DNA of 64,000 nucleotides from Candidatus Aminicenantes bacterium (GTDB lineage Bacteria; Acidobacteriota; Aminicenantia; S016-38). Numbering within the stretch: position 1 is the stretch's first letter; each line of letters starts with the position of its first letter. Positions 2,462-59,074 of the stretch are shown one piece after another. The translations under genes were made by a program, and so were the position numbers. The DNA lies in contig JALSNJ010000040.1 in NCBI GenBank assembly GCA_026987025.1, positions 166,713 through 230,712 on the forward strand. The letters are read 5' to 3'. The notes under the pieces were generated by a model that saw nothing but the letters and a program-made list of their open reading frames with translations, did not search any database and was not told where the DNA came from.

Positions 2462-4318
2462 TTAAGGGCAGAACAAAAGGTCCCCCTTCAGAAGTCTGAA
2501 GGCAAGGAGCCTTCCTCCCATGAAGGGCATCCCGGAGGAGGGGAAAATCGGTTCTTCGCCTTCTATTCTCCTCCGCTTCCTTCCGTTTAAGAGGACCGTC
2601 CCCCTTCCCTTCAAGTGCAGGGGGGCTTTTGTTATAAAGACAATGGGGTCATAGCGTCCGCCGGTCAGGCACCTTCCTTTGATGGAGGACCAGTTATAAA
2701 CCAGGGGCCTGCTCCTTTCCCCCATAAAGAGCATCCCCCTGGCCAGGGGTATCTGCGGCAGGGCCAGCAGGGGAAGGAGGAGGGTCATGAAGACCCCTGC
2801 AAGGTAAGCTCTTCTGTCGCCGGGCTTTTTTTTTATTCTGAGAATCAGGGTTAGAAGGAATAAAAGGGTAAGGGGAACCCATAAATAGTTGGGGACCCAG
2901 TTTCCGGGCATGGCCCTGGGATGCTTTGTAAAGGAGGGAAGGAGCCTCGGAAGGTAAACCGCCGGGGTGGACAGCCTGTGGAAGAGGAGGCCCACCCTGT
3001 TGGCAACATCGTGGGTGGTGGGTCCGTAATAAGCCGATGGAAGGGAGGAGAGGAAAAAAGAAAGCCCTAAGGAAAGCCCTGCCAGGAACCTGAAGGTGAG
3101 CTTGAGGTTTTGATTTTCGGCCTCCTTCAGGAAAAGGGCAAATCCCACAGCCAGAGCCCAGACCGCCGAGGCCAAGGGCCTGGCAGGAGGGCAGTATCCT
3201 CCCCGATGGGTTTGCCATCCGTAGTTGAAAACGAAGGGCAGAACCAGGATCAAGGAAGAGAGGGCGATTTTCTTTCTCCAAAACTTAATTAAGGCTGCCA
3301 AGGAGAAAACCGCCACCGGAGCATATGGAAGAAGTCCATCCCGCTGGTCCAGGAGATAATCTAAGAAGGTGGAGAACCTGTAATGCCAGGGGATTCTGTA
3401 AATTATGTCCTTCAAAATCTCCGCCCTTTGCTCTGCTGATAGAGGTCCGTAATATACCGAAAGTAGAGAGAAACTTCCGTAGTAGTGCTTCAGGAAGAGG
3501 AAAAAGAGGGAGGAAGGGAGCAGGGCGGGGAGGAGGAAATAGGGGGATTTCCTTTTTTGGAAATAAACGGAAAGCCCCAGAAGGAATATTAAATAAATTG
3601 TGTACTTGGCCCCGAACCAGGGGAGAGCTCCTGCGCCCAATCCCGCTGCCACGAGCATAAGTTTTTTGCCCTTCCAAAGGGAAAAAAGGGAAAAGGTTAA
3701 AATCAGGGCTACCGGTATTTCAGGAAAAACATGGAAGAAAAAGGGAAAGGCCGGCACGGTGAAGGCCACCAAGGCCGTGGAGTAGGTGGCCACATCTTCG
3801 GGGAATTCTCCCTTCAAAAGCAAATAGAGCAGGTAAAGAAAGAGCAGTCCATAAAGGGAAAAACCCAGCCTTATGATCAGCTTTTTCCCTTCCGGAGAAA
3901 AACCCCTGGCGGCGAGATAAAAGGGGATGGCCAGGGCTGAAGTCCCTGGAAGGTGTATGGAAAGCCATGTTTTTTTATTCACCGGTCTGGCGTGGGGAAG
4001 TATCCTTACCCATTTCCTTCTGTAAAACTCCCTCCACTGCTCCTGCAGGTACTGGTTTTTCACATTGATGTCCCCGTCGTAAATCAAGGATTTGGTGATA
4101 AGGAGATAATGGGGTTCGTCTCCGCTGAAGCCCAGGTTCTTCATTCTGACCACGGAGTAAAAAGAAAAAAGGAAGGAGAGAAGGAGGATGTGGCCGATTT
4201 TTAGTTTAAAATTTCCCCGGAAAAACCAGAGCCAACCCCAGAGCCAGAGAAAGAAGGCCACCCTGGCCAGGTGGTTAAGGGGGGAATAGGGAAAGAGGAA
4301 CTGAGAAATTATAACCAA
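2462..4318 (-). CDS. Polytopic membrane protein, putative GT-C-fold (PMT/ArnT-like) glycosyltransferase
   Basis: 618 aa with more than 10 predicted TM helices, an early-loop SGDEPHYLL motif resembling the DE motif of GT39/GT83 enzymes, and a 4-amino-4-deoxy-L-arabinose-transferase-like layout. Confidence 0.4.
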   Translation of the reverse strand: MVIISQFLFPYSPLNHLARVAFFLWLWGWLWFFRGNFKLKIGHILLLSFLFSFYSVVRMKNLGFSGDEPHYLLITKSLIYDGDINVKNQYLQEQWREFYRRKWVRILPHARPVNKKTWLSIHLPGTSALAIPFYLAARGFSPEGKKLIIRLGFSLYGLLFLYLLYLLLKGEFPEDVATYSTALVAFTVPAFPFFFHVFPEIPVALILTFSLFSLWKGKKLMLVAAGLGAGALPWFGAKYTIYLIFLLGLSVYFQKRKSPYFLLPALLPSSLFFLFLKHYYGSFSLLSVYYGPLSAEQRAEILKDIIYRIPWHYRFSTFLDYLLDQRDGLLPYAPVAVFSLAALIKFWRKKIALSSLILVLPFVFNYGWQTHRGGYCPPARPLASAVWALAVGFALFLKEAENQNLKLTFRFLAGLSLGLSFFLSSLPSAYYGPTTHDVANRVGLLFHRLSTPAVYLPRLLPSFTKHPRAMPGNWVPNYLWVPLTLLFLLTLILRIKKKPGDRRAYLAGVFMTLLLPLLALPQIPLARGMLFMGERSRPLVYNWSSIKGRCLTGGRYDPIVFITKAPLHLKGRGTVLLNGRKRRRIEGEEPIFPSSGMPFMGGRLLAFRLLKGDLLFCP

Positions 4319-4338: not shown

Positions 4339-6378
4339 CTACCCCATGAGCACCTCTATTTCCTTTAATCGTTTCAGTTTGTCCCTGTATCGGGCCGCAA
4401 GCTCAAAGTCCATCCTCTCGGCTGACTCCCTCATCTTCCTCTCCAGCTCCTCCATCATTTTCTTTCTGTCCTCAGCGGTTATGTATTCCTCAGCGTCTTC
4501 CGCCACCCTTTCCACCTCAAAGTAGTCCGAGGCGCTCATCTCGTAGGCTATGTCCTTCTTGATGGTCCTGGGAGTAATACCATGGGCCCTGTTGTATTCC
4601 TCCTGAATTTTCCTCCTCCTGGCCGTCTCCTCCATGGCCTCCTTCATGGCCTGGGTTATCCTATCGGCGTACATTATAACCTTCCCCCTTACATTCCTGG
4701 CCGCCCTTCCGAAGGTCTGAATCAGGGCCGTGGTGGAGCGGAGGAACCCTTCTCTGTCCGCGTCAAAGATAACCACCAGGGAGACCTCGGGAAGGTCCAG
4801 CCCTTCCCTCAGGAGGTTTATTCCCACCAGAACATCAAATTGACCCTGACGCAGGGCCTTTATTATCTTCGTCCTTTCCAGGGTATCTATGTCGGAATGC
4901 AGATATTTTGCCCTTATTCCTACCGAGAGCAGGAAGGAGGTTAGTTCCTCCGCCAGCCTTTTGGTCAGGGTTGTCACCAGAACCCTATCCCCCATCTCCA
5001 CCCTTTTTTTAACCTCCCCCACAAAATCCTCAATCTGCCCTGCCGTGGGCCTTACTTCCACCTGGGGGTCCAGAAGGCCCGTGGGCCTTACCAGCTGTTC
5101 CACCACTGCGCCGCCAGCCCTTTGAAGCTCGTAGGGTCCTGGGGTTGCCGAAACATAGAGGACCTGGCCAACCCTGGCTTCCCATTCTTCAAACTTCAGG
5201 GGCCTGTTGTCCAGGGCGGAGGGGAGGCGGAAGCCGTATTCCACTAACTTCAATTTCCTGGACCGGTCCCCCTCGTACATGGCCCTGAGCTGGGGAATCG
5301 TCATGTGGCTTTCGTCTATTATTATGAGGGTGTCCTCCGGTATGTAATCCATTAAAGTAAAGGGGGGCTGGCCCGGAAGCCTTCCGCTGAGATGGCGGGA
5401 GTAATTTTCTATGCCAGGGCAGTGGCCCGTTTCCCTTAGGAGGAGCAGGTCGTATCTTGTCCTCCTCTCCAGCCTTTCAGCCTCCATTACCCTTCCCTGG
5501 GATAGAAGCTCCTTTACCCTTTCTTCCAGCTCCCTTTCTATAGCCTTCAGGGCCCTCTCCAGCCTTTCCCGGGGGGTTACAAAATAACTGGAAGGATAAA
5601 CGGTTATATGCCTCCTTTGGCTAAGAACCTTTCCGGAAATGGGGTCTATTTCAAAAATAGCGTCCACCTCCTTGCCGAAGAATTCTATTCTGTATCCCAC
5701 ATCCTCGTAGGGGGGGAATATCTCCAGCTGGTCTCCCCGGAGCCTGAACTTTCCGGGATAGGGAAGCTCCGAACGGGAGTACTGGATTTCCACCAGCTTT
5801 TTCACCACATCCCCTGGATTTAAGAGTTCCCCCTGATGAATTCTCAGCACCAGGCCGAAGTAAACCTCGGGGTCTCCCATGCCGTAAATGCAGGAGACCG
5901 AGGCCACCACTATGACATCCTTCCTTTCGTGGAGGGAGCGGGTTGCCCTGAGCCTGAATTTGTCCAGTTCCTCGTTTATGGTGGCTTCCTTGGCTATGTA
6001 GGTGTCGGTCTGGGGAATGTAGGCTTCGGGCTGGTAGTAATCGTAATAACTAACGAAGTATTCCACAGCGTTTTCGGGAAAGAACCTTCGGAATTCCTGA
6101 TAGAGCTGAGCCGCCAGGGTCTTGTTGTGGGAAATTATCAGAACCGGCCTTTGAAGCCTCTCTATTACATTGGCCATGGTGAAGGTCTTTCCGGAACCCG
6201 TCACCCCCAGCAGGACCACATGCTTATGCCCCCTTTTGAAGTAGTCCACGATCTTTTCTATGGCCTGGGGCTGATCCCCTGTAGGCTTATAGGGGGCTTT
6301 TAGTTTAAATCTATTCCAGTTTGATGGGCTGGAAGAGGGTGAGAAGGTTTGCCCTGCCATATCCCATGTAGTAATCAA
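4339..6378 (-). CDS. uvrB: Excinuclease ABC subunit B
   Basis: FKLKAPYKPTGDQPQAIEKI, helicase motif GVTGSGKTFTMANVI, YDYYQPEAY, and the C-terminal UvrB/UvrC-interaction helix ELAARYRDKLKRLKE. Confidence 0.95.
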   Translation of the reverse strand: MITTWDMAGQTFSPSSSPSNWNRFKLKAPYKPTGDQPQAIEKIVDYFKRGHKHVVLLGVTGSGKTFTMANVIERLQRPVLIISHNKTLAAQLYQEFRRFFPENAVEYFVSYYDYYQPEAYIPQTDTYIAKEATINEELDKFRLRATRSLHERKDVIVVASVSCIYGMGDPEVYFGLVLRIHQGELLNPGDVVKKLVEIQYSRSELPYPGKFRLRGDQLEIFPPYEDVGYRIEFFGKEVDAIFEIDPISGKVLSQRRHITVYPSSYFVTPRERLERALKAIERELEERVKELLSQGRVMEAERLERRTRYDLLLLRETGHCPGIENYSRHLSGRLPGQPPFTLMDYIPEDTLIIIDESHMTIPQLRAMYEGDRSRKLKLVEYGFRLPSALDNRPLKFEEWEARVGQVLYVSATPGPYELQRAGGAVVEQLVRPTGLLDPQVEVRPTAGQIEDFVGEVKKRVEMGDRVLVTTLTKRLAEELTSFLLSVGIRAKYLHSDIDTLERTKIIKALRQGQFDVLVGINLLREGLDLPEVSLVVIFDADREGFLRSTTALIQTFGRAARNVRGKVIMYADRITQAMKEAMEETARRRKIQEEYNRAHGITPRTIKKDIAYEMSASDYFEVERVAEDAEEYITAEDRKKMMEELERKMRESAERMDFELAARYRDKLKRLKEIEVLMG

Positions 6379-7537
6379 AGCCCGGAAGGCTCTCGCCGTT
6401 TACATCGTCGCTGGTGTATATAAGGGCCTTTCTGACCTGTTCCGGGGTCAGGTTGGGCTTCAGGCTCAGCAGAAGGCCCGCTGCCCCGCTTATTATTGGA
6501 GCGGCAAAGGAGGTTCCATTGCCTTCAGCGTAACCTCCGGGATAGGTGGAAATTATCTTCACCCCCGGAGCCACAAGGTCCAGGTGGGGGCCGAAGTTGG
6601 AAAATCCGGCCTTTTTGTCCTCCGGGTCGCTGGCGCCCACCGATATGCACTTGGGAGAATAAGCTGCCGGGTAGAGCAGGGCTCCGGCATCGTTTCCTGC
6701 AGCGGCTACCAGTACCACATTGTTCTCCTGAGCCCTGTCCACCGCCTCCTCCAGGACCAGGGAAGGTTTATCCCCTCCGGCGGACACATTTATCACCCTG
6801 GCTCCTCTCTCTATGGCGTATTCAATTCCATCGGCGAGCTCAGAATAAGTCCCAAGCCCCTGGGAATCAAAGCTCTTTATGGCCATTATTTTACATCCCC
6901 AGCAGATCCCTGCTATACCTTCCCCGTTGTTGGCCTTGGCCCCGATGATTCCTGCTACCATGGTACCGTGGCCGTTGTCGTCCCTGGGGTCCTCGTCGCT
7001 GTTTATGAAATCATAGCCCTTTATGACCTTCCCCTTGAGGTCGGGGTGATTGTAGGCCACTCCGGTGTCCACCACCGCCACCACAATTTCTTCAGAGCCG
7101 GTGGTGAATTTCCACGCATAGGTGGCTTTAACATCGGCTCCCTTTTTAAAGCCCTCCTTTCCTCCGTTATTTTTAAGATACCATTGGTCAGCGAAGTAGG
7201 CGTCGTTGGGGATAACCTCCTCATCTTCATCGGCTATCCTGGCCATGTAGTCCGGTTCTGCCCATAGCACCCTGGCATCCGAGACCAGAAGCCTCAGTAC
7301 CTCCCCTTTGTTTTTTACCTTGAAGACGGCCCATCCTTTGAGCAGGAGCCGTCTCTTCAGCTCTATGCCGTAATCGCGGCTGAGGCCCTTTATGTCGGCA
7401 TCCGGGTGCAATTTGACCAGTATCCTGGATGGGACCTCCTCTAAGGGGGGATTGAAGTTAGGTTCCCTGTCCTTGAGCTTGGCGCCTAAGAGAAACAGGG
7501 ATACCGCCAGAAGGGCTAATATTAATTTTTTCCTCAT
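6311..7537 (-). CDS. Secreted subtilisin-like serine protease (peptidase S8) with N-terminal propeptide
   Basis: Signal peptide MRKKLILALLAVSLFLLGA. Catalytic triad contexts VAVVDTGV (Asp), HGTMVAGIIGA (His) and GTSFAAPIISGAAGLL (Ser). Confidence 0.85.
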   Translation of the reverse strand: MRKKLILALLAVSLFLLGAKLKDREPNFNPPLEEVPSRILVKLHPDADIKGLSRDYGIELKRRLLLKGWAVFKVKNKGEVLRLLVSDARVLWAEPDYMARIADEDEEVIPNDAYFADQWYLKNNGGKEGFKKGADVKATYAWKFTTGSEEIVVAVVDTGVAYNHPDLKGKVIKGYDFINSDEDPRDDNGHGTMVAGIIGAKANNGEGIAGICWGCKIMAIKSFDSQGLGTYSELADGIEYAIERGARVINVSAGGDKPSLVLEEAVDRAQENNVVLVAAAGNDAGALLYPAAYSPKCISVGASDPEDKKAGFSNFGPHLDLVAPGVKIISTYPGGYAEGNGTSFAAPIISGAAGLLLSLKPNLTPEQVRKALIYTSDDVNGESLPGFDYYMGYGRANLLTLFQPIKLE

Positions 7538-7548
7538 GCTCTACCTCC

Positions 7549-8268
7549 TTAAAAAGTGAAGCCAACTTCCCCGTGGAAGCTCAGCCCGTTTAAAAACCCC
7601 ACGGAAATTCCACCGCTCAGGTGTTCTCCGCTGTAGAAGTTGCTGCCCAGGACTATTTCCACGGGAATTCTGGGTCTGATTTTTTCGTCGCTCTGTCCCT
7701 CTAAATCCTGAAACTTCTCCGTAAACTTCACGCTTCCCCAGAAATAATCAAAATAAACCCCTGCGTAGGGTTCTATGTTTTCCTGTCCTTCGTACATGGC
7801 CAGGACCCCCAATCTGAAGTCCCAGAAGTGAACCTTGCCCTCCACGGAGCCGGTTAAGTAGGCCGATTGCTCCACATCCCACTGGTGGGAGGAAAGAGAG
7901 TAGGAGATCTCAGGGTTCAAAACCAGGGAAAGTTCTTCGGAGAATACATAGGGTTCCCAGTAGGCCCCGGCGTAAATTGAATAATTGGGCTTGGAGTAGG
8001 AGGTGGAAATGGAGATGGGGAGGGAGACGAAGGTGAGCTCTTGCCCGAAGGAAGTCTTTCCGTAGGAGATGCCGAAGTAGAATTCGGAGGTTTCGCTGAT
8101 CAAAACCGAATTTTTAATACCTGTCAGGGAGAGGTTAAGGGATGTCTCCTTTTCCCCGATTTTTGCTTTCAGGCTTCTGTAGCCTCCCCTGAATATAAGG
8201 GTGTATTCCAGCCCTTCCCCCCCCATGAGAAAAAGGGAGAGGAGTAGAAACAAAACACCTTTCTTCAT
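7549..8268 (-). CDS. Hypothetical outer-membrane beta-barrel protein
   Basis: N-terminal signal peptide, alternating hydrophobic/polar beta-strand pattern, and a C-terminal aromatic residue (…GEVGFTF) typical of OMP barrels. Confidence 0.4.
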   Translation of the reverse strand: MKKGVLFLLLSLFLMGGEGLEYTLIFRGGYRSLKAKIGEKETSLNLSLTGIKNSVLISETSEFYFGISYGKTSFGQELTFVSLPISISTSYSKPNYSIYAGAYWEPYVFSEELSLVLNPEISYSLSSHQWDVEQSAYLTGSVEGKVHFWDFRLGVLAMYEGQENIEPYAGVYFDYFWGSVKFTEKFQDLEGQSDEKIRPRIPVEIVLGSNFYSGEHLSGGISVGFLNGLSFHGEVGFTF

Positions 8269-8939
8269 TTTCCCTCCTTTTTACACTTTGTTTTACCTTC
8301 CCAGATTTTCCCCCAGTTTCCCTCCCACACATACAATTTGCAGCCTATTTCATGGTCAAAGGCCTTGAGCTTCCAGTGGGCCTTTCCGCTTCCCTTAAGG
8401 TTGAAAATCCTGGTAATTTTCCTCTCCTCCTCTTCCATTATAAGCATGAGCCTGGCCTTGTCAACAAGGGAGTAGGAGAGTTCAATGTGAATGGTGTCGT
8501 CCCTGCAATAGAAATTCTCCACCTTTATTTTTCCCGCCCTTTGCTGGAGGGGGTTCACCACCGAAGATATAATGCTCATGGCCAGTCCGTGAAGCCTGAA
8601 TACCTTACCATCCAGAGAATAAACCCTCCAGGTCTGCGGAAAATCCTCTATCTTCCCCGAAAGAAATTCTATTATGTCCTTTCTGTCCACGGTAATCTGA
8701 AGCTTGGGGACCTTAAATTTCCTCAACACCAACGAAAACCTTTTCCCATAAGGGTAAGTAAAGGCCAGGGAGGAGAGCAGAACCGATGCCCTGGGTATAA
8801 TGTCCCGGGAATTCCATTCCCCTGCCTCACAGCTCAGGACCACCTCCCTTTCCAGGGCAAAAATCCTGGGTTGCTGGCAGCCGTATCTCAGAAGAACCTG
8901 CTGAAGCTCCATTACAATGGCCAGAATAAGGGCCGTCAC
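8265..8939 (-). CDS. Hypothetical protein
   Basis: 224-aa ORF translationally coupled (4-nt overlaps) to both neighbours in the peptidase operon. No recognisable motif. Confidence 0.3.
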   Translation of the reverse strand: MTALILAIVMELQQVLLRYGCQQPRIFALEREVVLSCEAGEWNSRDIIPRASVLLSSLAFTYPYGKRFSLVLRKFKVPKLQITVDRKDIIEFLSGKIEDFPQTWRVYSLDGKVFRLHGLAMSIISSVVNPLQQRAGKIKVENFYCRDDTIHIELSYSLVDKARLMLIMEEEERKITRIFNLKGSGKAHWKLKAFDHEIGCKLYVWEGNWGKIWEGKTKCKKEGK

Positions 8940-9781
8940 TGGAAGAACCTCCTGTATATTAGCTCAAAGACAACCTTCATTCCGGGTCTGGAGGTGAAGG
9001 GAGAGGAGAACATAACCCTTGCCTGGGAGTCTGAGCTGGTGAAGGCCTCGTCCGGGGAAAGGCCATTTTTTCTTAGGAGGAGATAGCTGTGGAGTCGTAC
9101 CCCTATGGGGTTGAAATCCTTTATATCAACGGCGTCCCAGCCCAGATATCTGTAAATTCCGGGAAGGGAGGGTTCCTCCCCGGACAGGGGCAGGCAAATC
9201 AACCCGGTTTTTTCCGGTGAAAACATCATGTATAGGGCCAATCGGTAAATGAAGTGGGCCTCCTTGGGGTCCTCGCCCACCCTGAAGGGGGGAACTTCCC
9301 TTATCCTTTCGTCCTCCCACCACTGTAGCCATAGGTAGTTTTCCCTTGAATTTGCCCTGGCCTTGGGTTCCACATCGGAAAGGGTGAAAATCCCTGCCCG
9401 GTAAAAGAGGTTCATTCCTGTTTTCCCGTCCCCTATAAGGTTTTGTTTCTTTACCCATCTTTTGCAGCGGGACTCCGGCATGGGGGGCTTTCCCCTGGAT
9501 GCAGGACAGGGGGAGAAGAAGAGCTTCCAGTTTCCCGGTCCCTTCAAAAGGAAGAAATACCTTCCTTCCCTGATGTAGGTCTCCCTTTTCCCGGGCTCCA
9601 GGAATATAGAGGCGGAGTTGTTCAGCAAAAGATAATCGCTGGAGTCGGTTTCCACCGAGATTTTTCCTGGAGAATCCAGGGTGAAGGAATAAACAGGGGT
9701 CCATCCCTTTTTGTCCAGCTTTCCGTGGGAAATAAGGTATGGCCTGGAACAAAGAAGAGCGAGTATAAGCAGGAACTTCAT
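8936..9781 (-). CDS. Hypothetical secreted protein
   Basis: Signal peptide MKFLLILALLCSRPYLIS. 281 aa with no recognisable domain. Overlaps the S9 peptidase stop by 4 nt. Confidence 0.35.
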   Translation of the reverse strand: MKFLLILALLCSRPYLISHGKLDKKGWTPVYSFTLDSPGKISVETDSSDYLLLNNSASIFLEPGKRETYIREGRYFFLLKGPGNWKLFFSPCPASRGKPPMPESRCKRWVKKQNLIGDGKTGMNLFYRAGIFTLSDVEPKARANSRENYLWLQWWEDERIREVPPFRVGEDPKEAHFIYRLALYMMFSPEKTGLICLPLSGEEPSLPGIYRYLGWDAVDIKDFNPIGVRLHSYLLLRKNGLSPDEAFTSSDSQARVMFSSPFTSRPGMKVVFELIYRRFFQ

Positions 9782-12135
9782 TTTCCTTCGTCCTGAAAGA
9801 GGGAATCCCAGAGGTCAGAATTTCCCCGAAGGTATTTTTCAAACCAGCCCATTATGGCCATATACCATCCTATTCTGTGCTTGTATCCCATAACCCAGTG
9901 GTTTTCTCCCTTTACAAGAACCAGGGCCACCGGCCTTTTAAGGAGTTCCAGGGCGGTAAACATCCGATGGCTTTCTCCTGGAGGCACATTGGTGTCGCTG
10001 GTCCCGTGAAGAAGGAGCAGGGGAGTTTTTATCCTGTGGGCGAAGAACAGGGGGGAGCGGTCCACATATATGTCCTTCCTGTTCCAGGGGAAGGAAAAGG
10101 CGGCGGAAATGGCGTTGTAGGTGTAACCCCAGTAACCTTCCCCCCAATAGGAGGGGATCATGCTTATGCCTGCGTGGGAGACTGCGGCGTCAAAAAAGTC
10201 GGTTTTCGTAACCAGGTATTGCGTCATAAAACCTCCGAAGGAAGCCCCTATGATTCCCTTCCTATCCACCCAGGGATGTTTCTTTACAAATCTTTTGCTG
10301 GCCTCAAGGATTATTTTCCCCGAAAGCTTCCCCCAATCGTTTACATGTTTTGCAGAGTACCACTGCCCGAAGCCCGTGGCTCCTGGAGGGGTCAGGGTGT
10401 AGACCACAAAGCCCTTGGCTGCCCACCATTCCTTGGGATATCTTCCGGCGAAGTCCCTGGTAATGGGGGAAGTGCCTCCGTAGTAGTAAATAATAAGGGG
10501 GTATTTCTTTGCCGGGTCAAAATCCGGAGGATAGTAGATTCTCCCTTTAACGGGGTATTTTCCTATCTTTAAATCCCAATCCTCCACCTTCCCCCACCTG
10601 ACCGAGGAGTATTTTTCCCAGGCCGGGAATAGGCGGAGGAGGACCTTTCCTTCTTTCGTCACCAACAGCCGATGCGGAAGATTTACCCCCGTGACTATAA
10701 CCGATATTACCCCTGAAGGAGAGACCCGAAGGTTCCTTACGACCTCACCCTCTAAGGGAATCTCCTTTATGACCCCGCTCTCTGCCCGATAAAGACGGAC
10801 ATAGGTTTTATCCTCAGCAGTAAAAACAATGTTTTTATTGTCCATCCAGTAGGCTGAAAGAACCGAGGGAGAGAATTCCTTAGTTAGGCACTCCACCTTC
10901 CGGGAGCCCAGATGGTATATCATAAGCTCTCCATCGTAGTCGTTGGGAATTTCCCCTTTCCCTAATCTTGAACATAATCCGGAAAAGGAGGAGGGTCCGC
11001 CTAAGAGCAGAAGTCTTTTCCCGTCGGGAGCCCATTTAACCGAGTTTATCCAGGGGTCCTTTACGATGTCCTGGATTTTTCCGGTTTCCAGGTCCAGCAA
11101 CTGATATTTGTTCAAAAGGTATGGTCTTCTGTTGGGGTCAAAATAGGTGTAGGAGAGAAGGAGGGTTTTTCCGTCGGGGCTCAGCTCTAAAGGTTGGGCC
11201 TCGGTGGTTATAAGCTTTCTGTCCATTGCGCTTTCAGGCCAGAATATGTGTATTTCGTTTTTACCTCCCCATCCCCTCTGGCGGTATGCAGGGTCCTTTA
11301 CCCTGTTGAGGCCGAACTCGTTGTATTCCTTTCTTTTACGATGAACCGTGTAAAGGAGGAAACTTCCGTCCCTGCTCCAAAGGTATGAGGAGAGGTTCTT
11401 GACCTCTAAAAGCTTCCTGTTTTTCCCCTCCACATCCGCTATCCACAGAGAATCTTTGAGCTTGTAGGAAATCTGATGATGGCCTGGTCTCCAGCGGGGA
11501 AGGCTGATTTTGAAGCCCCTGAAGGAGCGCAGCACCCTTCCTTCCTTCAGGGAATAGACCTCATACCATCTTTCCTCCTTGCCCTGCAAGTTCCAATTTC
11601 TGAGTTCCACCAGAAGGAATTTCCCGTCCCCGGAGGGAAGCCCCCTTTCCACCCTTAAGGAGTTCATGAGTTCCCAAAGGGAGAGGCTGTGTTCCGGGAA
11701 AAGGGAAGTGGAAAAATCCCCTGAGACCTTCAACCGGATTTCCCCTTCCTCCGGGCTTTCTACCCTTATAAGGAGGAAATGTTTTCCCTTTTCAAGGAGA
11801 CGGCAGGCCTTCATTTCTTTGCCCTGGCCCAGGGCCTGGCCGTCTAAGGAAACCTCTGCAGGAGCGCTGGATGAAATCCTTATTTTTTTCTTTCCCCAGT
11901 CGGTTATCAAATACAGAGCAAAATAGTGCACGGTGTGAGGCTCCGTTTTTATAAATGAGGGCGTTCTTTTCCATCGGAGGGAGAGGGCAGGGGAAACCCT
12001 CACCTCCTTTTCTTCCACTGCCGAGAAGGGTTCTATCTTGAGCGAGCTTCCCCGGGGCAGGGGACCGAGGTGGAGAAACTCCGCAGAGAAGCTCAGGGAT
12101 AGGAGCAAAAGAAACAAAACGGCCTTTCTCGTCAT
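9778..12135 (-). CDS. Secreted S9-family serine peptidase (prolyl oligopeptidase / acylaminoacyl-peptidase type) with N-terminal beta-propeller
   Basis: Signal peptide. WD40/TolB-like propeller repeats (SPDGK, APDGK). C-terminal alpha/beta-hydrolase with nucleophile elbow GASFGGFMT and HGTSDTNVPP. Confidence 0.85.
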   Translation of the reverse strand: MTRKAVLFLLLLSLSFSAEFLHLGPLPRGSSLKIEPFSAVEEKEVRVSPALSLRWKRTPSFIKTEPHTVHYFALYLITDWGKKKIRISSSAPAEVSLDGQALGQGKEMKACRLLEKGKHFLLIRVESPEEGEIRLKVSGDFSTSLFPEHSLSLWELMNSLRVERGLPSGDGKFLLVELRNWNLQGKEERWYEVYSLKEGRVLRSFRGFKISLPRWRPGHHQISYKLKDSLWIADVEGKNRKLLEVKNLSSYLWSRDGSFLLYTVHRKRKEYNEFGLNRVKDPAYRQRGWGGKNEIHIFWPESAMDRKLITTEAQPLELSPDGKTLLLSYTYFDPNRRPYLLNKYQLLDLETGKIQDIVKDPWINSVKWAPDGKRLLLLGGPSSFSGLCSRLGKGEIPNDYDGELMIYHLGSRKVECLTKEFSPSVLSAYWMDNKNIVFTAEDKTYVRLYRAESGVIKEIPLEGEVVRNLRVSPSGVISVIVTGVNLPHRLLVTKEGKVLLRLFPAWEKYSSVRWGKVEDWDLKIGKYPVKGRIYYPPDFDPAKKYPLIIYYYGGTSPITRDFAGRYPKEWWAAKGFVVYTLTPPGATGFGQWYSAKHVNDWGKLSGKIILEASKRFVKKHPWVDRKGIIGASFGGFMTQYLVTKTDFFDAAVSHAGISMIPSYWGEGYWGYTYNAISAAFSFPWNRKDIYVDRSPLFFAHRIKTPLLLLHGTSDTNVPPGESHRMFTALELLKRPVALVLVKGENHWVMGYKHRIGWYMAIMGWFEKYLRGNSDLWDSLFQDEGK

Positions 12136-12183
12136 CTTTGACCTCCGGAAAAATTTTAATATAATTTCTATCGGGAGGGAAAA

Positions 12184-12543
12184 ATGAAAAACAAGGGAAG
12201 TTCCACTTTCTTTAACCTTATTCTACTGGCCCTTATCGGTTATGGGGTATATGTGGCCTATGTTTACGGAAAAATGGAGATAGATAGAAGGGCTTTGATT
12301 TCCGATATTACCGATGCCATAGCAGGAAGGGATGAGCTGAGCGTTTCCCAGCTCAGGGAAAGGCTTATGGAGCTGGCGGAGGCGAAGAATCTGGACATAG
12401 ACCCGGACTCCGTATATATAAACAAAACCAGGGAGACCATCCATGTGGAGTTCACCTACTATGTGGAGAAAAACATGCTCTTCTGGCGTCTTCAAAAGGA
12501 AATCTTCATCAATCTGGACCTGCCGGCGGTGGCTGGTTTATGA
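12184..12543 (+). CDS. Small membrane-anchored hypothetical protein
   Basis: N-terminal TM helix FFNLILLALIGYGVYVAYVY. Good RBS. Stop overlaps the histidine-kinase start (ATGA). Confidence 0.4.
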   Translation: MKNKGSSTFFNLILLALIGYGVYVAYVYGKMEIDRRALISDITDAIAGRDELSVSQLRERLMELAEAKNLDIDPDSVYINKTRETIHVEFTYYVEKNMLFWRLQKEIFINLDLPAVAGL

Positions 12544-14819
12544 AGGAACATCTCCTTTCCCTGCTTACCATATCCTTAAACAAGCCCTTTGAAGAGGCGG
12601 CGGGGGAGTTTCTCTCAAGGGTTAGCGATTATTTCAAGGCCAAGGGCTATTCCTTAATTATAGTATTCAACCCCGAGGAACCCTTTGTGTTTCTTTCCCG
12701 GGGGATCTCCGATGACTACAGAAGATTCGTCCAGGAGAGGATGGAGGAACTTCCCGGGAGGTTCTCTTACCTGCAGGGAGAAATTTTGACCTTCCCGGAT
12801 GTCAGGAAGATTACCCCGGAAAAGGTCAGGGAGGCTCTTTTGAAGGAGGGAATTCTTTCCTACATAACGGTTCCCCTGGGATGGGAAGGGAAGCTCTTCG
12901 GTATCCTTACCCTTTATTTCCCCAAGAAGAGAAAGTTTAAAAGGAAATTCCTGGAGGAGATGAAGGCCTTGGCCTCGGTTTTCTCCTCATATCTTAACAA
13001 TTATTTCCTTTTCTCCACCCTGATGGAGAGAGAAAAAACCTTAAATACCATATTTGAAAGCTCCCCGGCTGCCATATTCGTGGTGCAGGATATGAAGTTT
13101 AAGGTGGTGAACCCTGCCTTCCAGAGGATAACCGGATATTCTTCTGAGGAGGCTAAAAATTTGTTCTTCTGGGAAATCGTTCATCCAGACCAGCAGGAGG
13201 AGGTTAAGGAGAGGGGAATAAGGAGGGAGAGGGGGGAAAGGGTCCAGCCGGAGCTTTACGAGATGAAAATAGTGGACAAGGAGGGCCGTCAAAAATGGGT
13301 GCTTTTCAGGGGCACTCCCATAAAGTTTCGGGGAAGGCCTGCCAACCTGGGGATAGCCTTTGATATAACGGAGAAGAAGGAGTTGGAAGATAAATTAACT
13401 TCCCTGGAGGAAAACCTCAAGGCCATTTACGAGGCCTCTGTCATGGGTATATACCTATTTGACCTGGAAAAGGGGATATACGAAATGGTAAATCCCCAGG
13501 GGAAAAAATTGCTGGGCATGGACCTTGAGGGGAAAAGACCGGAGGAGGTCTTTCCTCCGGAGGAGGTGGAAAGGATAAATGAGATCCTCAATTACATAAA
13601 GAAAACCAAGAAAACCCTTACCACCGTGGAGAAGTACCATACGGGTCTGGGAGAGAGGTTCATATTCGTCAGCAGGGCCCCGGTCTTCGGAAGCGACGGA
13701 AAGGTGAAGAAAGTGGTGGGTATATTCCGGGATATAACCGAAGAGGAGAGGGCCAAGCAGGAGTGGGAGAAAAGGGCCGATTTTTCCATGATGGAAAGGC
13801 TCATAGAGGTGGTGGCCAAGGAGCTCAACAACATTCTGAGCATAATCCTGGCCACTTCGGAAATAGGTCTGGAATCGGGCATTGACGAGACTACCTGGAG
13901 GAGAATAAACCAGAAGGCCAAGGAGGCCCAGAACTTTATCTACCAGCTCATGGAGATAGGAAGGGGAGGAGGCGGGGGTAAAACCACCGTGGAACTCAAC
14001 GAGTTCGTGAAGGAAAACATCCTCCTTTTGAGGTCCATGCTGCCCGGAAGGATAGGGCTCAGGTTCAATCCATGGCAGTTGCCCCTCTACACCTCATGCA
14101 ATCCTTCCGCCCTGAGAACTGCCCTTTCTCACCTGGTTCTAAACGCCAAGGAGGCCATAGAGGAGGAAGGGGAAATTGAAATAAACCTCGGAAAGGAGCA
14201 AAATTACGCCGTCTTAGAGGTTAAGGATACGGGGAGGGGAATGAGCGAGGGGGAAATTTCCAGGGCCTTTGAACCCTTCTTCTCCACCAAATCCCTTGAG
14301 GAAAACCCGGGGCTCGGATTGACCTTCGTCAAAAAGTTCGTGGAGAAGTTAGGAGGGGAAATCCAGCTCCACAGCTCGTCGGGAAAGGGTACCTCCGTTA
14401 TTTTAAAATTTCCCCTTAGTCCGGAGCCCCCGAAGGAGGCTAAGGAGATAGTTAAAAAAGCCTCCGGCGCAGAGATTCTCCTGGTGGAGGACGACCCTGA
14501 TGTCAGGAAGGTGGAACAGGAACTTCTTACCGTTTTGGGTTATAAAGTGATGGAGGCCTCCTCTGCCAGACAGGCCCTGGAAATAATAAGGGAAAAACCT
14601 CCATCCATAGTGGTTACCGACCTGTCCATGCCGGAGATGGGGGGAGCCCAGCTGGCCCAGGAAATAAAGAAAATAACCCCTTCCGTTAAAGTTCTTCTTA
14701 TAAGCGGATATGTAAGCGAAGACGAGCTGGAAAAATTCAAAAATATGGGCATAGACGGGGTTCTTCACAAACCCTTTGGACTGGAAGAACTGAAAAAGGC
14801 CCTGCGGGAACTCTCTTGA
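12540..14819 (+). CDS. Hybrid sensor histidine kinase / response regulator with PAS domains
   Basis: PAS-like modules, a HisKA-like dimerisation region, HATPase_c motifs (LEVKDTGRGMSEGE…GLGLTFVKKFVEKLGGEIQL), and a C-terminal receiver (ILLVEDDPDVRKV…VTDLSMPEMGG). Confidence 0.85.
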   Translation: MKEHLLSLLTISLNKPFEEAAGEFLSRVSDYFKAKGYSLIIVFNPEEPFVFLSRGISDDYRRFVQERMEELPGRFSYLQGEILTFPDVRKITPEKVREALLKEGILSYITVPLGWEGKLFGILTLYFPKKRKFKRKFLEEMKALASVFSSYLNNYFLFSTLMEREKTLNTIFESSPAAIFVVQDMKFKVVNPAFQRITGYSSEEAKNLFFWEIVHPDQQEEVKERGIRRERGERVQPELYEMKIVDKEGRQKWVLFRGTPIKFRGRPANLGIAFDITEKKELEDKLTSLEENLKAIYEASVMGIYLFDLEKGIYEMVNPQGKKLLGMDLEGKRPEEVFPPEEVERINEILNYIKKTKKTLTTVEKYHTGLGERFIFVSRAPVFGSDGKVKKVVGIFRDITEEERAKQEWEKRADFSMMERLIEVVAKELNNILSIILATSEIGLESGIDETTWRRINQKAKEAQNFIYQLMEIGRGGGGGKTTVELNEFVKENILLLRSMLPGRIGLRFNPWQLPLYTSCNPSALRTALSHLVLNAKEAIEEEGEIEINLGKEQNYAVLEVKDTGRGMSEGEISRAFEPFFSTKSLEENPGLGLTFVKKFVEKLGGEIQLHSSSGKGTSVILKFPLSPEPPKEAKEIVKKASGAEILLVEDDPDVRKVEQELLTVLGYKVMEASSARQALEIIREKPPSIVVTDLSMPEMGGAQLAQEIKKITPSVKVLLISGYVSEDELEKFKNMGIDGVLHKPFGLEELKKALRELS

Positions 14820-17177: not shown

Positions 17178-17253
17178 TGCGGCTGTAGCTCAACAGGATA
17201 GAGCGTGGGATTCCTAATCCCAAGGTTGTGGGTTCGATTCCCGCCAGCCGCAC
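17178..17253 (+). tRNA. tRNA-Arg (anticodon CCT)
   Basis: Cloverleaf read by eye: acceptor TGCGGCT/AGCCGCA, D-arm GCTC…GAGC, anticodon stem TGGGA/TCCCA with loop TTCCTAA, T-arm GGTTCGATTCC. Confidence 0.8.
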
Positions 17254-42475: not shown

Positions 42476-44969
<2,494 letters not shown>

Positions 44970-44970
<1 letters not shown>

Positions 44971-45041
44971 GCGGGCGACGGGACTCGAACCCGCAACCAC
45001 GAGCTTGGGAAGCTCGCACTCTGCCATTGAGTTACGCCCGC
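44970..45041 (-). tRNA. tRNA-Gly (anticodon CCC)
   Basis: Reverse complement GCGGGCGTAACTCAATGGCAGAGTGCGAGCTTCCCAAGCTCGTGGTTGCGGGTTCGAGTCCCGTCGCCCGC. Anticodon loop TTCCCAA. Abuts the symporter stop codon. Confidence 0.8.

Positions 45042-58997: not shown

Positions 58998-59074
<77 letters not shown>

Follow-up and report, generated by a model that had tools for sequence, protein, structure and literature searches.

A 64-kilobase (kb) stretch of DNA from an uncultured Candidatus Aminicenantes bacterium (contig JALSNJ010000040.1; the whole stretch is hereafter the window) carries a block of tightly packed genes on the minus strand. The block encodes putative secreted serine peptidases of families S9 and S8 and, between them, three proteins termed here U1, U2 and U3. 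The two peptidase genes are assigned by Pfam (PF00326 and PF00082, respectively), whereas U1, U2 and U3 have no Pfam match. This agrees with an earlier reading of the same DNA made without database searches (the sequence-only reading), according to which two secreted serine proteases flank three uncharacterised proteins. The five genes, their lengths in amino acids (aa) and the basis of their assignment are:

12135..9778, minus strand: S9 peptidase gene, 785 aa (open reading frame and Pfam)
9781..8936, minus strand: U1, 281 aa (list of open reading frames)
8939..8265, minus strand: U2, 224 aa, GTG start (list of open reading frames)
8268..7549, minus strand: U3, 239 aa (list of open reading frames)
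7537..6311, minus strand: S8 subtilase gene, 408 aa (open reading frame and Pfam)

The five open reading frames (ORFs) are co-directional, as had been proposed, and the overlaps of four nucleotides (nt) are real: The S9-U1, U1-U2 and U2-U3 junctions are start/stop overlaps with the sequences ATGA, GTGA and ATGA. Two measures had to be corrected. U3 and S8 are separated by 11 nt instead of 12 nt, and the S8 gene falls outside the interval 7549-12135 previously given for all five genes, since it is located at 6311-7537. A Shine-Dalgarno-like GGAGG/AGGAG is present upstream of each of the five genes. All five products have signal-like N-termini and lack a further transmembrane segment. Two additional long ORFs at 8352..9086 (plus strand) and 9126..9842 (minus strand) are shadows of the U1-U3 genes. 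No paralogues were found within the window.

According to the sequence-only reading, a lack of orthologues for the three middle ORFs would have refuted it. Orthologues of the same length and in the same order exist, with lowest identities of 36 % (U1), 30 % (U2) and 52 % (U3). U3 has a ratio of nonsynonymous to synonymous substitution rates (Ka/Ks) of 0.07, and U1 and U2 have ratios of 0.14-0.19, as calculated against two relatives with synonymous sites near saturation. Because the orthologues keep length and order and Ka/Ks is low throughout (0.07-0.19), U1, U2 and U3 are real genes under purifying selection.

The S9 protein matches PF00326 at E = 3e-33 with 115.4 bits (gathering cutoff 22.6), which places it in peptidase family S9. 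Its triad residues occur in the expected order, GASFGG at 630 (Ser632), HGTSD at 710 (Asp714) and GENH at 743 (His746), and are kept in the orthologues. The closest solved structures are those of S9/acylaminoacyl peptidases (8wt1, 7ep9, PH0594). The protein would comprise a signal-like N-terminus, an extra N-terminal domain of about 160 aa, a propeller region and an α/β-hydrolase catalytic domain. In the propeller region, DPPIV_N gives 24.6 bits summed with no single stretch passing, matches of the TolB/PD40 type are faint, and PDB alignments reach into residues 208-316. With the S9C acylaminoacyl peptidases/DPP5 (Pyrococcus PH0594, Porphyromonas Dpp5), which are its best sequence matches, S9 shares the predicted layout of propeller and α/β-hydrolase as well as the Ser-Asp-His triad. 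It differs from them in two respects: The NCBIfam equivalog Dpp5 (NF053518) demands 900 bits, of which S9 reaches only 125, and the extra N-terminal domain (residues 1-160; 11656-12135, minus strand) has no Pfam match. This domain is kept in all orthologues and carries a 16-residue insertion in clade B, one of the two clades, A and B, into which the loci fall. A strand motif of the type 'GKHFLLIK' is common to the S9 N-terminal domain and the U1 jelly-roll described below. Profile comparisons for paralogy between the S9 N-terminal domain and U1, and between U2 and U1, were not significant. Taken by its sequence, S9 is a new member of a well-known family.

The same applies to S8. It matches PF00082 at E = 4e-62 (210 bits, residues 149-394) and thus falls into peptidase family S8. 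The triad residues Asp157, His190 and Ser343 and the motifs VVDTG, HGTMVAG and GTSF(A/S)AP are conserved. Among solved structures, S8 comes closest to Ak.1 protease at E = 5e-64 and to thermitase at 1e-54, both of which are thermostable, broad-specificity extracellular proteases. The entire catalytic domain can be aligned with these proteases of the thermitase group (S8A), with Asp-His-Ser intact, and the likeness extends to a probable N-terminal prodomain and to a thermophilic source organism. The differences concern the host, here a diderm Aminicenantes, and the position of the gene between a putative barrel gene and uvrB. S8 consists of a signal peptide, a pro-region of about 100 aa and the catalytic domain; a C-terminal extension is lacking. 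The fervidolysin prodomain PF22148 was recognised on the pro-region of the orthologue at locus L003 (25.6 bits, cutoff 21) and reached 20.3 bits at L001; the pro-region of the window protein has no Pfam match. With the mycosin model TIGR03921, S8 scores 225 bits compared to the required 278.75, has no C-terminal hydrophobic segment and no ESX genes nearby. S8 can be classified as a thermitase-type subtilase and as a new member of a well-known family. Both peptidases keep complete catalytic triads and look active.

For one of the middle proteins, the sequence-only reading had assumed a barrel-like structure, and U3 indeed displays features of an outer-membrane barrel. Its N-terminal MKKGVLFLLLSLFLMGG is a classic signal peptide. 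The C-terminus reads ...GEVGFTF, in which GFTF is nearly invariant (GITF in L003). Mature U3 contains no Cys, is 17 % aromatic and 10 % Gly, is rich in Ser/Thr, has no hydrophobic helix and comprises about 11-13 partly overlapping amphipathic segments of period 2. The combination found here, i.e. signal peptide, aromatic beta-signal and amphipathic strands without a hydrophobic helix, is that by which barrel proteins are recognised, although these marks are heuristic only. Six of seven U3 family members weakly match the TDE1717 barrel family (NCBIfam NF049866; best E = 5e-5, 21 bits, far from the cutoff of 135), and the searches also run for U1 and U2 returned nothing beyond this match. Of the three proteins, U3 shows the strongest conservation, and it is probably an outer-membrane beta-barrel.

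U1 is composed of an N-terminal jelly-roll beta-sandwich (approximately residues 13-92) and a helical C-terminal domain, whose extreme C-terminus carries the invariant IYRR(F/Y)FQ. The N-terminal domain is similar to accessory domains known from secreted proteases, namely pre-peptidase C-terminal (PPC) and collagen-binding domains, although other jelly-rolls score nearly as high, and at the sequence level the U1 N-terminus does not match the Pfam PPC model. In contrast to the PPC/collagen-binding jelly-rolls, the U1 domain is not part of the protease but located on a separate polypeptide, where it is fused to the helical domain. No homologues of U1 were found in Pfam and NCBIfam, searched per protein and across family members, or in a PDB profile search. 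U2 has a hydrophobic N-terminus and four invariant cysteines, C21, C37, C145 and C219. Four invariant Cys are typical of extracytoplasmic proteins. The protein is found in five clusters and in a distant clade at 30-32 % identity, and no Pfam or PDB sequence match was obtained. In an AlphaFold2 (AF2) model, residues 137-218 reach a predicted local distance difference test score (pLDDT) of 70-84, and Foldseek returns generic matches to immunoglobulin (Ig)/fibronectin type III (FN3) domains. From this model, the C-terminal domain of U2 is assigned with moderate confidence as an Ig/FN3-like beta-sandwich.

Neither U1 nor U2 has conserved catalytic-type residues, and both are probably non-catalytic periplasmic proteins. 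Anchoring of U1 and U2 as lipoproteins was considered and rejected: The signal-region Cys of U1 is missing in the distant clade, the motifs do not fit a lipobox, and a conserved lipobox was found in none of the proteins. As far as profile and structure searches can detect relatives, U1, U2 and U3 represent new, narrowly distributed families.

U1 forms 8 clusters at 90 % identity, corresponding to about eight species-level lineages, and gene context was inspected in every one of them. The complete block S9-U1-U2-U3-S8 is present in 8/8 of these U1-carrying lineages. The co-occurrence check proposed earlier thus gave a clear outcome, as all five genes are found together in 8/8 species-level lineages that carry any of them. 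The result that would have refuted the sequence-only reading, genes that do not co-occur in other genomes, was not observed. According to the record titles, the carriers are metagenome-assembled genomes of uncultured "Candidatus Aminicenantes" or "Acidobacteria", several of them from hydrothermal samples. Wherever the contig is long enough, the gene order is constant: a divergent hybrid sensor kinase and a 119-aa protein, then S9-U1-U2-U3-S8-uvrB, then a membrane protein of about 560-620 aa. Outside this nine-gene block, the flanking genes differ between clades A and B, and downstream also within clade B. In clade B, a tricorn-type protease (L003) and a CBM9/DUF5916 protein (L003 and L001), i.e. 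further envelope hydrolase-related genes, are encoded within 10 kb of the block, at L003 19309-20876 and L001 2628-4706.

Because UvrB is 77-90 % identical across the lineages, the group carrying the block is a narrow one in phylogenetic terms. An exhaustive HMM search through 1.84 billion representative proteins did not reveal U1 relatives outside the family; the lone extra match, P0019, is a repeated kinesin-motor fragment and an artefact. A metagenome scan with the U3 profile found already known loci only, and when genome and metagenome contigs were scanned for loci further removed, only the same lineage came up.

Transcription of the block is probably not initiated at a single site. The following promoter sequences were found in the window and at the corresponding loci of the relatives:

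8464..8437, minus strand: sigma-70 consensus promoter TTGACA-16-TATAAT inside U2, some 170 nt ahead of U3
L006 11318-11345: clade-A copy
L009 9748-9775: clade-A copy
L010 11153-11180: clade-A copy
L015 8318-8345: clade-A copy
L016 8321-8348: clade-A copy
L001 11546-11574: clade-B promoter TTGACA-17-TAAACT, 19-47 nt before the U3 start
L003 11552-11580: clade-B promoter TTGACA-17-TAAACT, 19-47 nt before the U3 start

The site within U2 matches the consensus perfectly, as does no other in the 64 kb of the window (0.01 such matches expected), and it occupies the same position in 5/5 other clade-A genomes despite saturated synonymous sites. At most loci, the promoter site before U3 has no second of its kind within 15-20 kb. 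Since a near-consensus site before U3 is conserved in every relative, U3, S8, uvrB and the membrane protein gene are probably driven by their own strong internal promoter. S9-U1-U2 are likely transcribed with or without read-through into U3 and the genes beyond. In the S9 upstream region, which comprises 48 nt only, no consensus promoter was found on the S9 strand.

The genes adjoining the five are:

4339..6378, minus strand: uvrB, start ATG 6360 or TTG 6378, inside the S8 3' end
2462..4318, minus strand: membrane protein, 618 aa, 20 nt after uvrB, last gene of the co-directional array
12138-12165, plus strand: promoter-like TTGACC-16-TATAAT ahead of the divergent pair
12184..12543, plus strand: 119-aa membrane-anchored protein with an N-terminal transmembrane segment and a weak DUF4845 match
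12540..14819, plus strand: cytoplasmic PAS/GAF-HATPase-receiver hybrid sensor kinase, 4-nt overlap with the 119-aa gene

The array does not end at S8, as had been assumed; the tight packing continues through uvrB and the membrane protein gene to position 2462. The UvrB N-terminal FKLKAPYKPTGDQP motif is encoded directly past the S8 stop codon. As no start codon is present between the two, uvrB must start at 6360 or 6378 within the S8 gene. The resulting overlap amounts to about 50-68 nt, and both the UvrB Pfam domains and an overlap of about 50 nt are also found in the relatives. Hence, a DNA-repair gene appears to be co-transcribed with the gene of a secreted protease. The 618-aa membrane protein is polytopic with at least 8 hydrophobic segments and is syntenic in every contig of sufficient length. 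It has no Pfam match itself. Its orthologues give sub-cutoff matches to PF13231 (PMT_2), with E = 8e-4 and 2e-3, so that the protein is possibly a glycosyltransferase of the GT-C (PMT_2-like) type. A GDEPHY motif is located in its first loop region.

The genes for the 119-aa protein and the kinase diverge from S9 across 48 nt. This arrangement is conserved at all loci, and the Pfam domains are present in the relatives. A role of the sensor kinase pair as regulator of the block is possible. No riboswitch or leader was detected near the protease block when the window was searched with Rfam and ARAGORN. The sole matches in the window are the tRNAs Arg-CCT (17179-17253), Gly-CCC (44969-45041) and Met-CAT (58998-59074). 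Altogether, the seven genes that run in one direction are likely arranged as S9-U1-U2 / promoter / U3-S8-uvrB-membrane protein, and not as a closed five-gene operon.

How might these proteins act together? We favour, at a probability of roughly 45 %, a set of envelope proteins that digests protein to peptides and includes accessory proteins specific to the lineage. In this proposal, for which we infer the localisation, the two-step cascade and every role of U1, U2 and U3, the products would be placed in the envelope (periplasm and outer membrane) of heat-loving uncultured Aminicenantes and would serve protein digestion for nutrition. S8, a thermitase-type endopeptidase made with a prodomain, would convert proteins into oligopeptides. 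The acylaminoacyl-peptidase/DPP5-like S9 would then trim these oligopeptides to pieces of a size suited for uptake; S9 family enzymes are restricted to short peptides by their propeller. The U3 barrel might provide a pore or an anchor in the outer membrane. U1 (jelly-roll and helical) and U2 (disulfide-bonded, Ig-like) might be involved in substrate binding or retain the enzymes at the outer membrane. A similar logic is found in the cascade of Porphyromonas gingivalis, in which surface endopeptidases feed periplasmic S9/S46 exopeptidases: In both cases, an endopeptidase is combined with an S9 enzyme that trims oligopeptides in an organism living on peptides. However, the endopeptidase is an S8 enzyme here and a C25 gingipain there, a type IX secretion signal is absent here, and the genes that are clustered with three orphans in Aminicenantes are dispersed in P. 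gingivalis.

Several features of the block support such a digestion set. Both proteases have their family assignment and intact active sites, S8 is close to thermostable extracellular enzymes, and all five products have signal-like N-termini. The barrel features of U3, the protease-accessory-type domain of U1, the invariant Cys of U2 and the purifying selection point the same way. The 4-nt overlaps together with the ribosome-binding sites indicate translational coupling, and in the eight species-level lineages the five genes strictly co-occur, with outer flanks that vary. The proposal is also in line with the description of Aminicenantes as protein and peptide degradation specialists whose peptidases are highly transcribed (PMC6469976).

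Several observations weigh against this interpretation. The conserved internal promoter would part S9-U1-U2 from U3-S8, which runs counter to one simple five-gene operon. uvrB and the gene of the glycosyltransferase-like protein are equally tightly packed and syntenic, so that adjacency in this region is not specific for proteolysis. In S8, a domain for export through or anchoring in the outer membrane could not be recognised, which makes an extracellular place of the enzyme no more than possible, and no peptide transporter adjoins the block. The models of U1 and U2 are of low confidence overall (pLDDT 57 and 61), and their fold matches are to generic beta-sandwiches. Co-occurrence is, as far as the searches reach, limited to one narrow group of Aminicenantes, which offers no outside relative for an independent test. 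Because uvrB, the glycosyltransferase-like membrane protein and the divergent kinase pair are just as syntenic, synteny cannot discriminate between a five-gene functional module and a conserved block of mixed functions. The dedicated five-gene module of the sequence-only reading therefore stands in part: Its gene content and co-occurrence hold, whereas the narrow group, the equally syntenic neighbours and the internal promoter speak against its being dedicated.

In the main rival explanation, the genes would share a position and no function. S8 and S9 would then be independent envelope proteases, U1, U2 and U3 would have an unrelated structural or surface role, and the nine-gene block would have been inherited intact in a young, narrow lineage. 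The overlap of uvrB with S8, the membrane protein gene only 20 nt further on, the equal synteny of both, the high identity of UvrB in a narrow group, the internal promoter and the lack of a relative beyond the lineage to test co-occurrence independently all fit this explanation, and since uvrB is packed into the same array, tight packing is no guarantee of a common role. We nevertheless consider it less probable than the digestion set. S9, U1, U2 and U3 are joined by start/stop overlaps, all five products have signal-like N-termini which UvrB does not have, the type of domain found at the N-terminus of U1 is known attached to secreted proteases, and the block was kept when its flanks were rearranged between the clades.

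It is unlikely that the genes specify a dedicated protease complex of the outer membrane, or a maturation system, comparable to the dentilisin operon prcB-prcA-prtP of Treponema denticola. Here, S8 would assemble with U1 and U2 on the U3 barrel, perhaps process them, and have S9 as a companion. In both systems, an S8 protease is encoded beside non-catalytic accessory envelope proteins in a tight array, here also with a barrel, and an association with the outer membrane is plausible. S8 has no anchoring domain of its own, a Ka/Ks of 0.07 is unusually low for a porin, the invariant C-terminal end of U1 suggests a docking motif, and S8 and U3 weakly match the PrtP model and the Treponema barrel family, respectively. 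These matches, however, amount to 120 bits compared to a cutoff of 300 for PrtP and to 21 bits compared to 135 for TDE1717. Furthermore, the searches detected no PrcA or PrcB homologues, lipoproteins are absent as none of the proteins has a conserved lipobox, and the S9 peptidase and the barrel are additional here. A related possibility starts from the fact that the proteases lack any known sorting domain: U1, U2 and U3 might constitute an undescribed outer-membrane apparatus, a barrel with two periplasmic adaptors, which exports, anchors or activates the thermitase-type protease and perhaps S9 on the surface of a diderm. We regard this as somewhat more speculative still.

That S8 and S9 serve as processing proteases in a maturation cluster for ribosomally synthesized and post-translationally modified peptides (RiPPs), or in a defence cluster, is very improbable. 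Sub-threshold matches link S9 with the model for lasso-peptide isopeptidase and S8 with those for PatA/PatG and IetS/IteS. All these matches are weak and far under the family cutoffs, every protein has a signal-like N-terminus, and the block does not contain a precursor peptide, cyclase, ATP-dependent enzyme, transporter or IetA partner. A RiPP cluster was rejected, as neither a precursor nor a cytoplasmic maturation enzyme is encoded in the block and signal-like N-termini are found on all products. A defence system was rejected as well, since PADLOC returned only generic subtilase/IetS-type matches for S8 and no partner proteins. In agreement with the sequence-only reading, Pfam, NCBIfam and PADLOC provided no match to a named system.

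No named system corresponds to this arrangement, and there is no sign of a new working principle. On present evidence, it is an ordinary protease pair with the lineage-specific neighbours U1, U2 and U3. S8 and S9 add two predicted thermostable proteases for possible use. If it is true that the orphans anchor or export the proteases, this would be a new solution for protease display in diderms, restricted to thermophilic Aminicenantes. Aminicenantes, an abundant group without cultured members, are presumed to feed on proteins and peptides, and the block provides a concrete candidate for surface protein handling in a thermophilic branch of this group.

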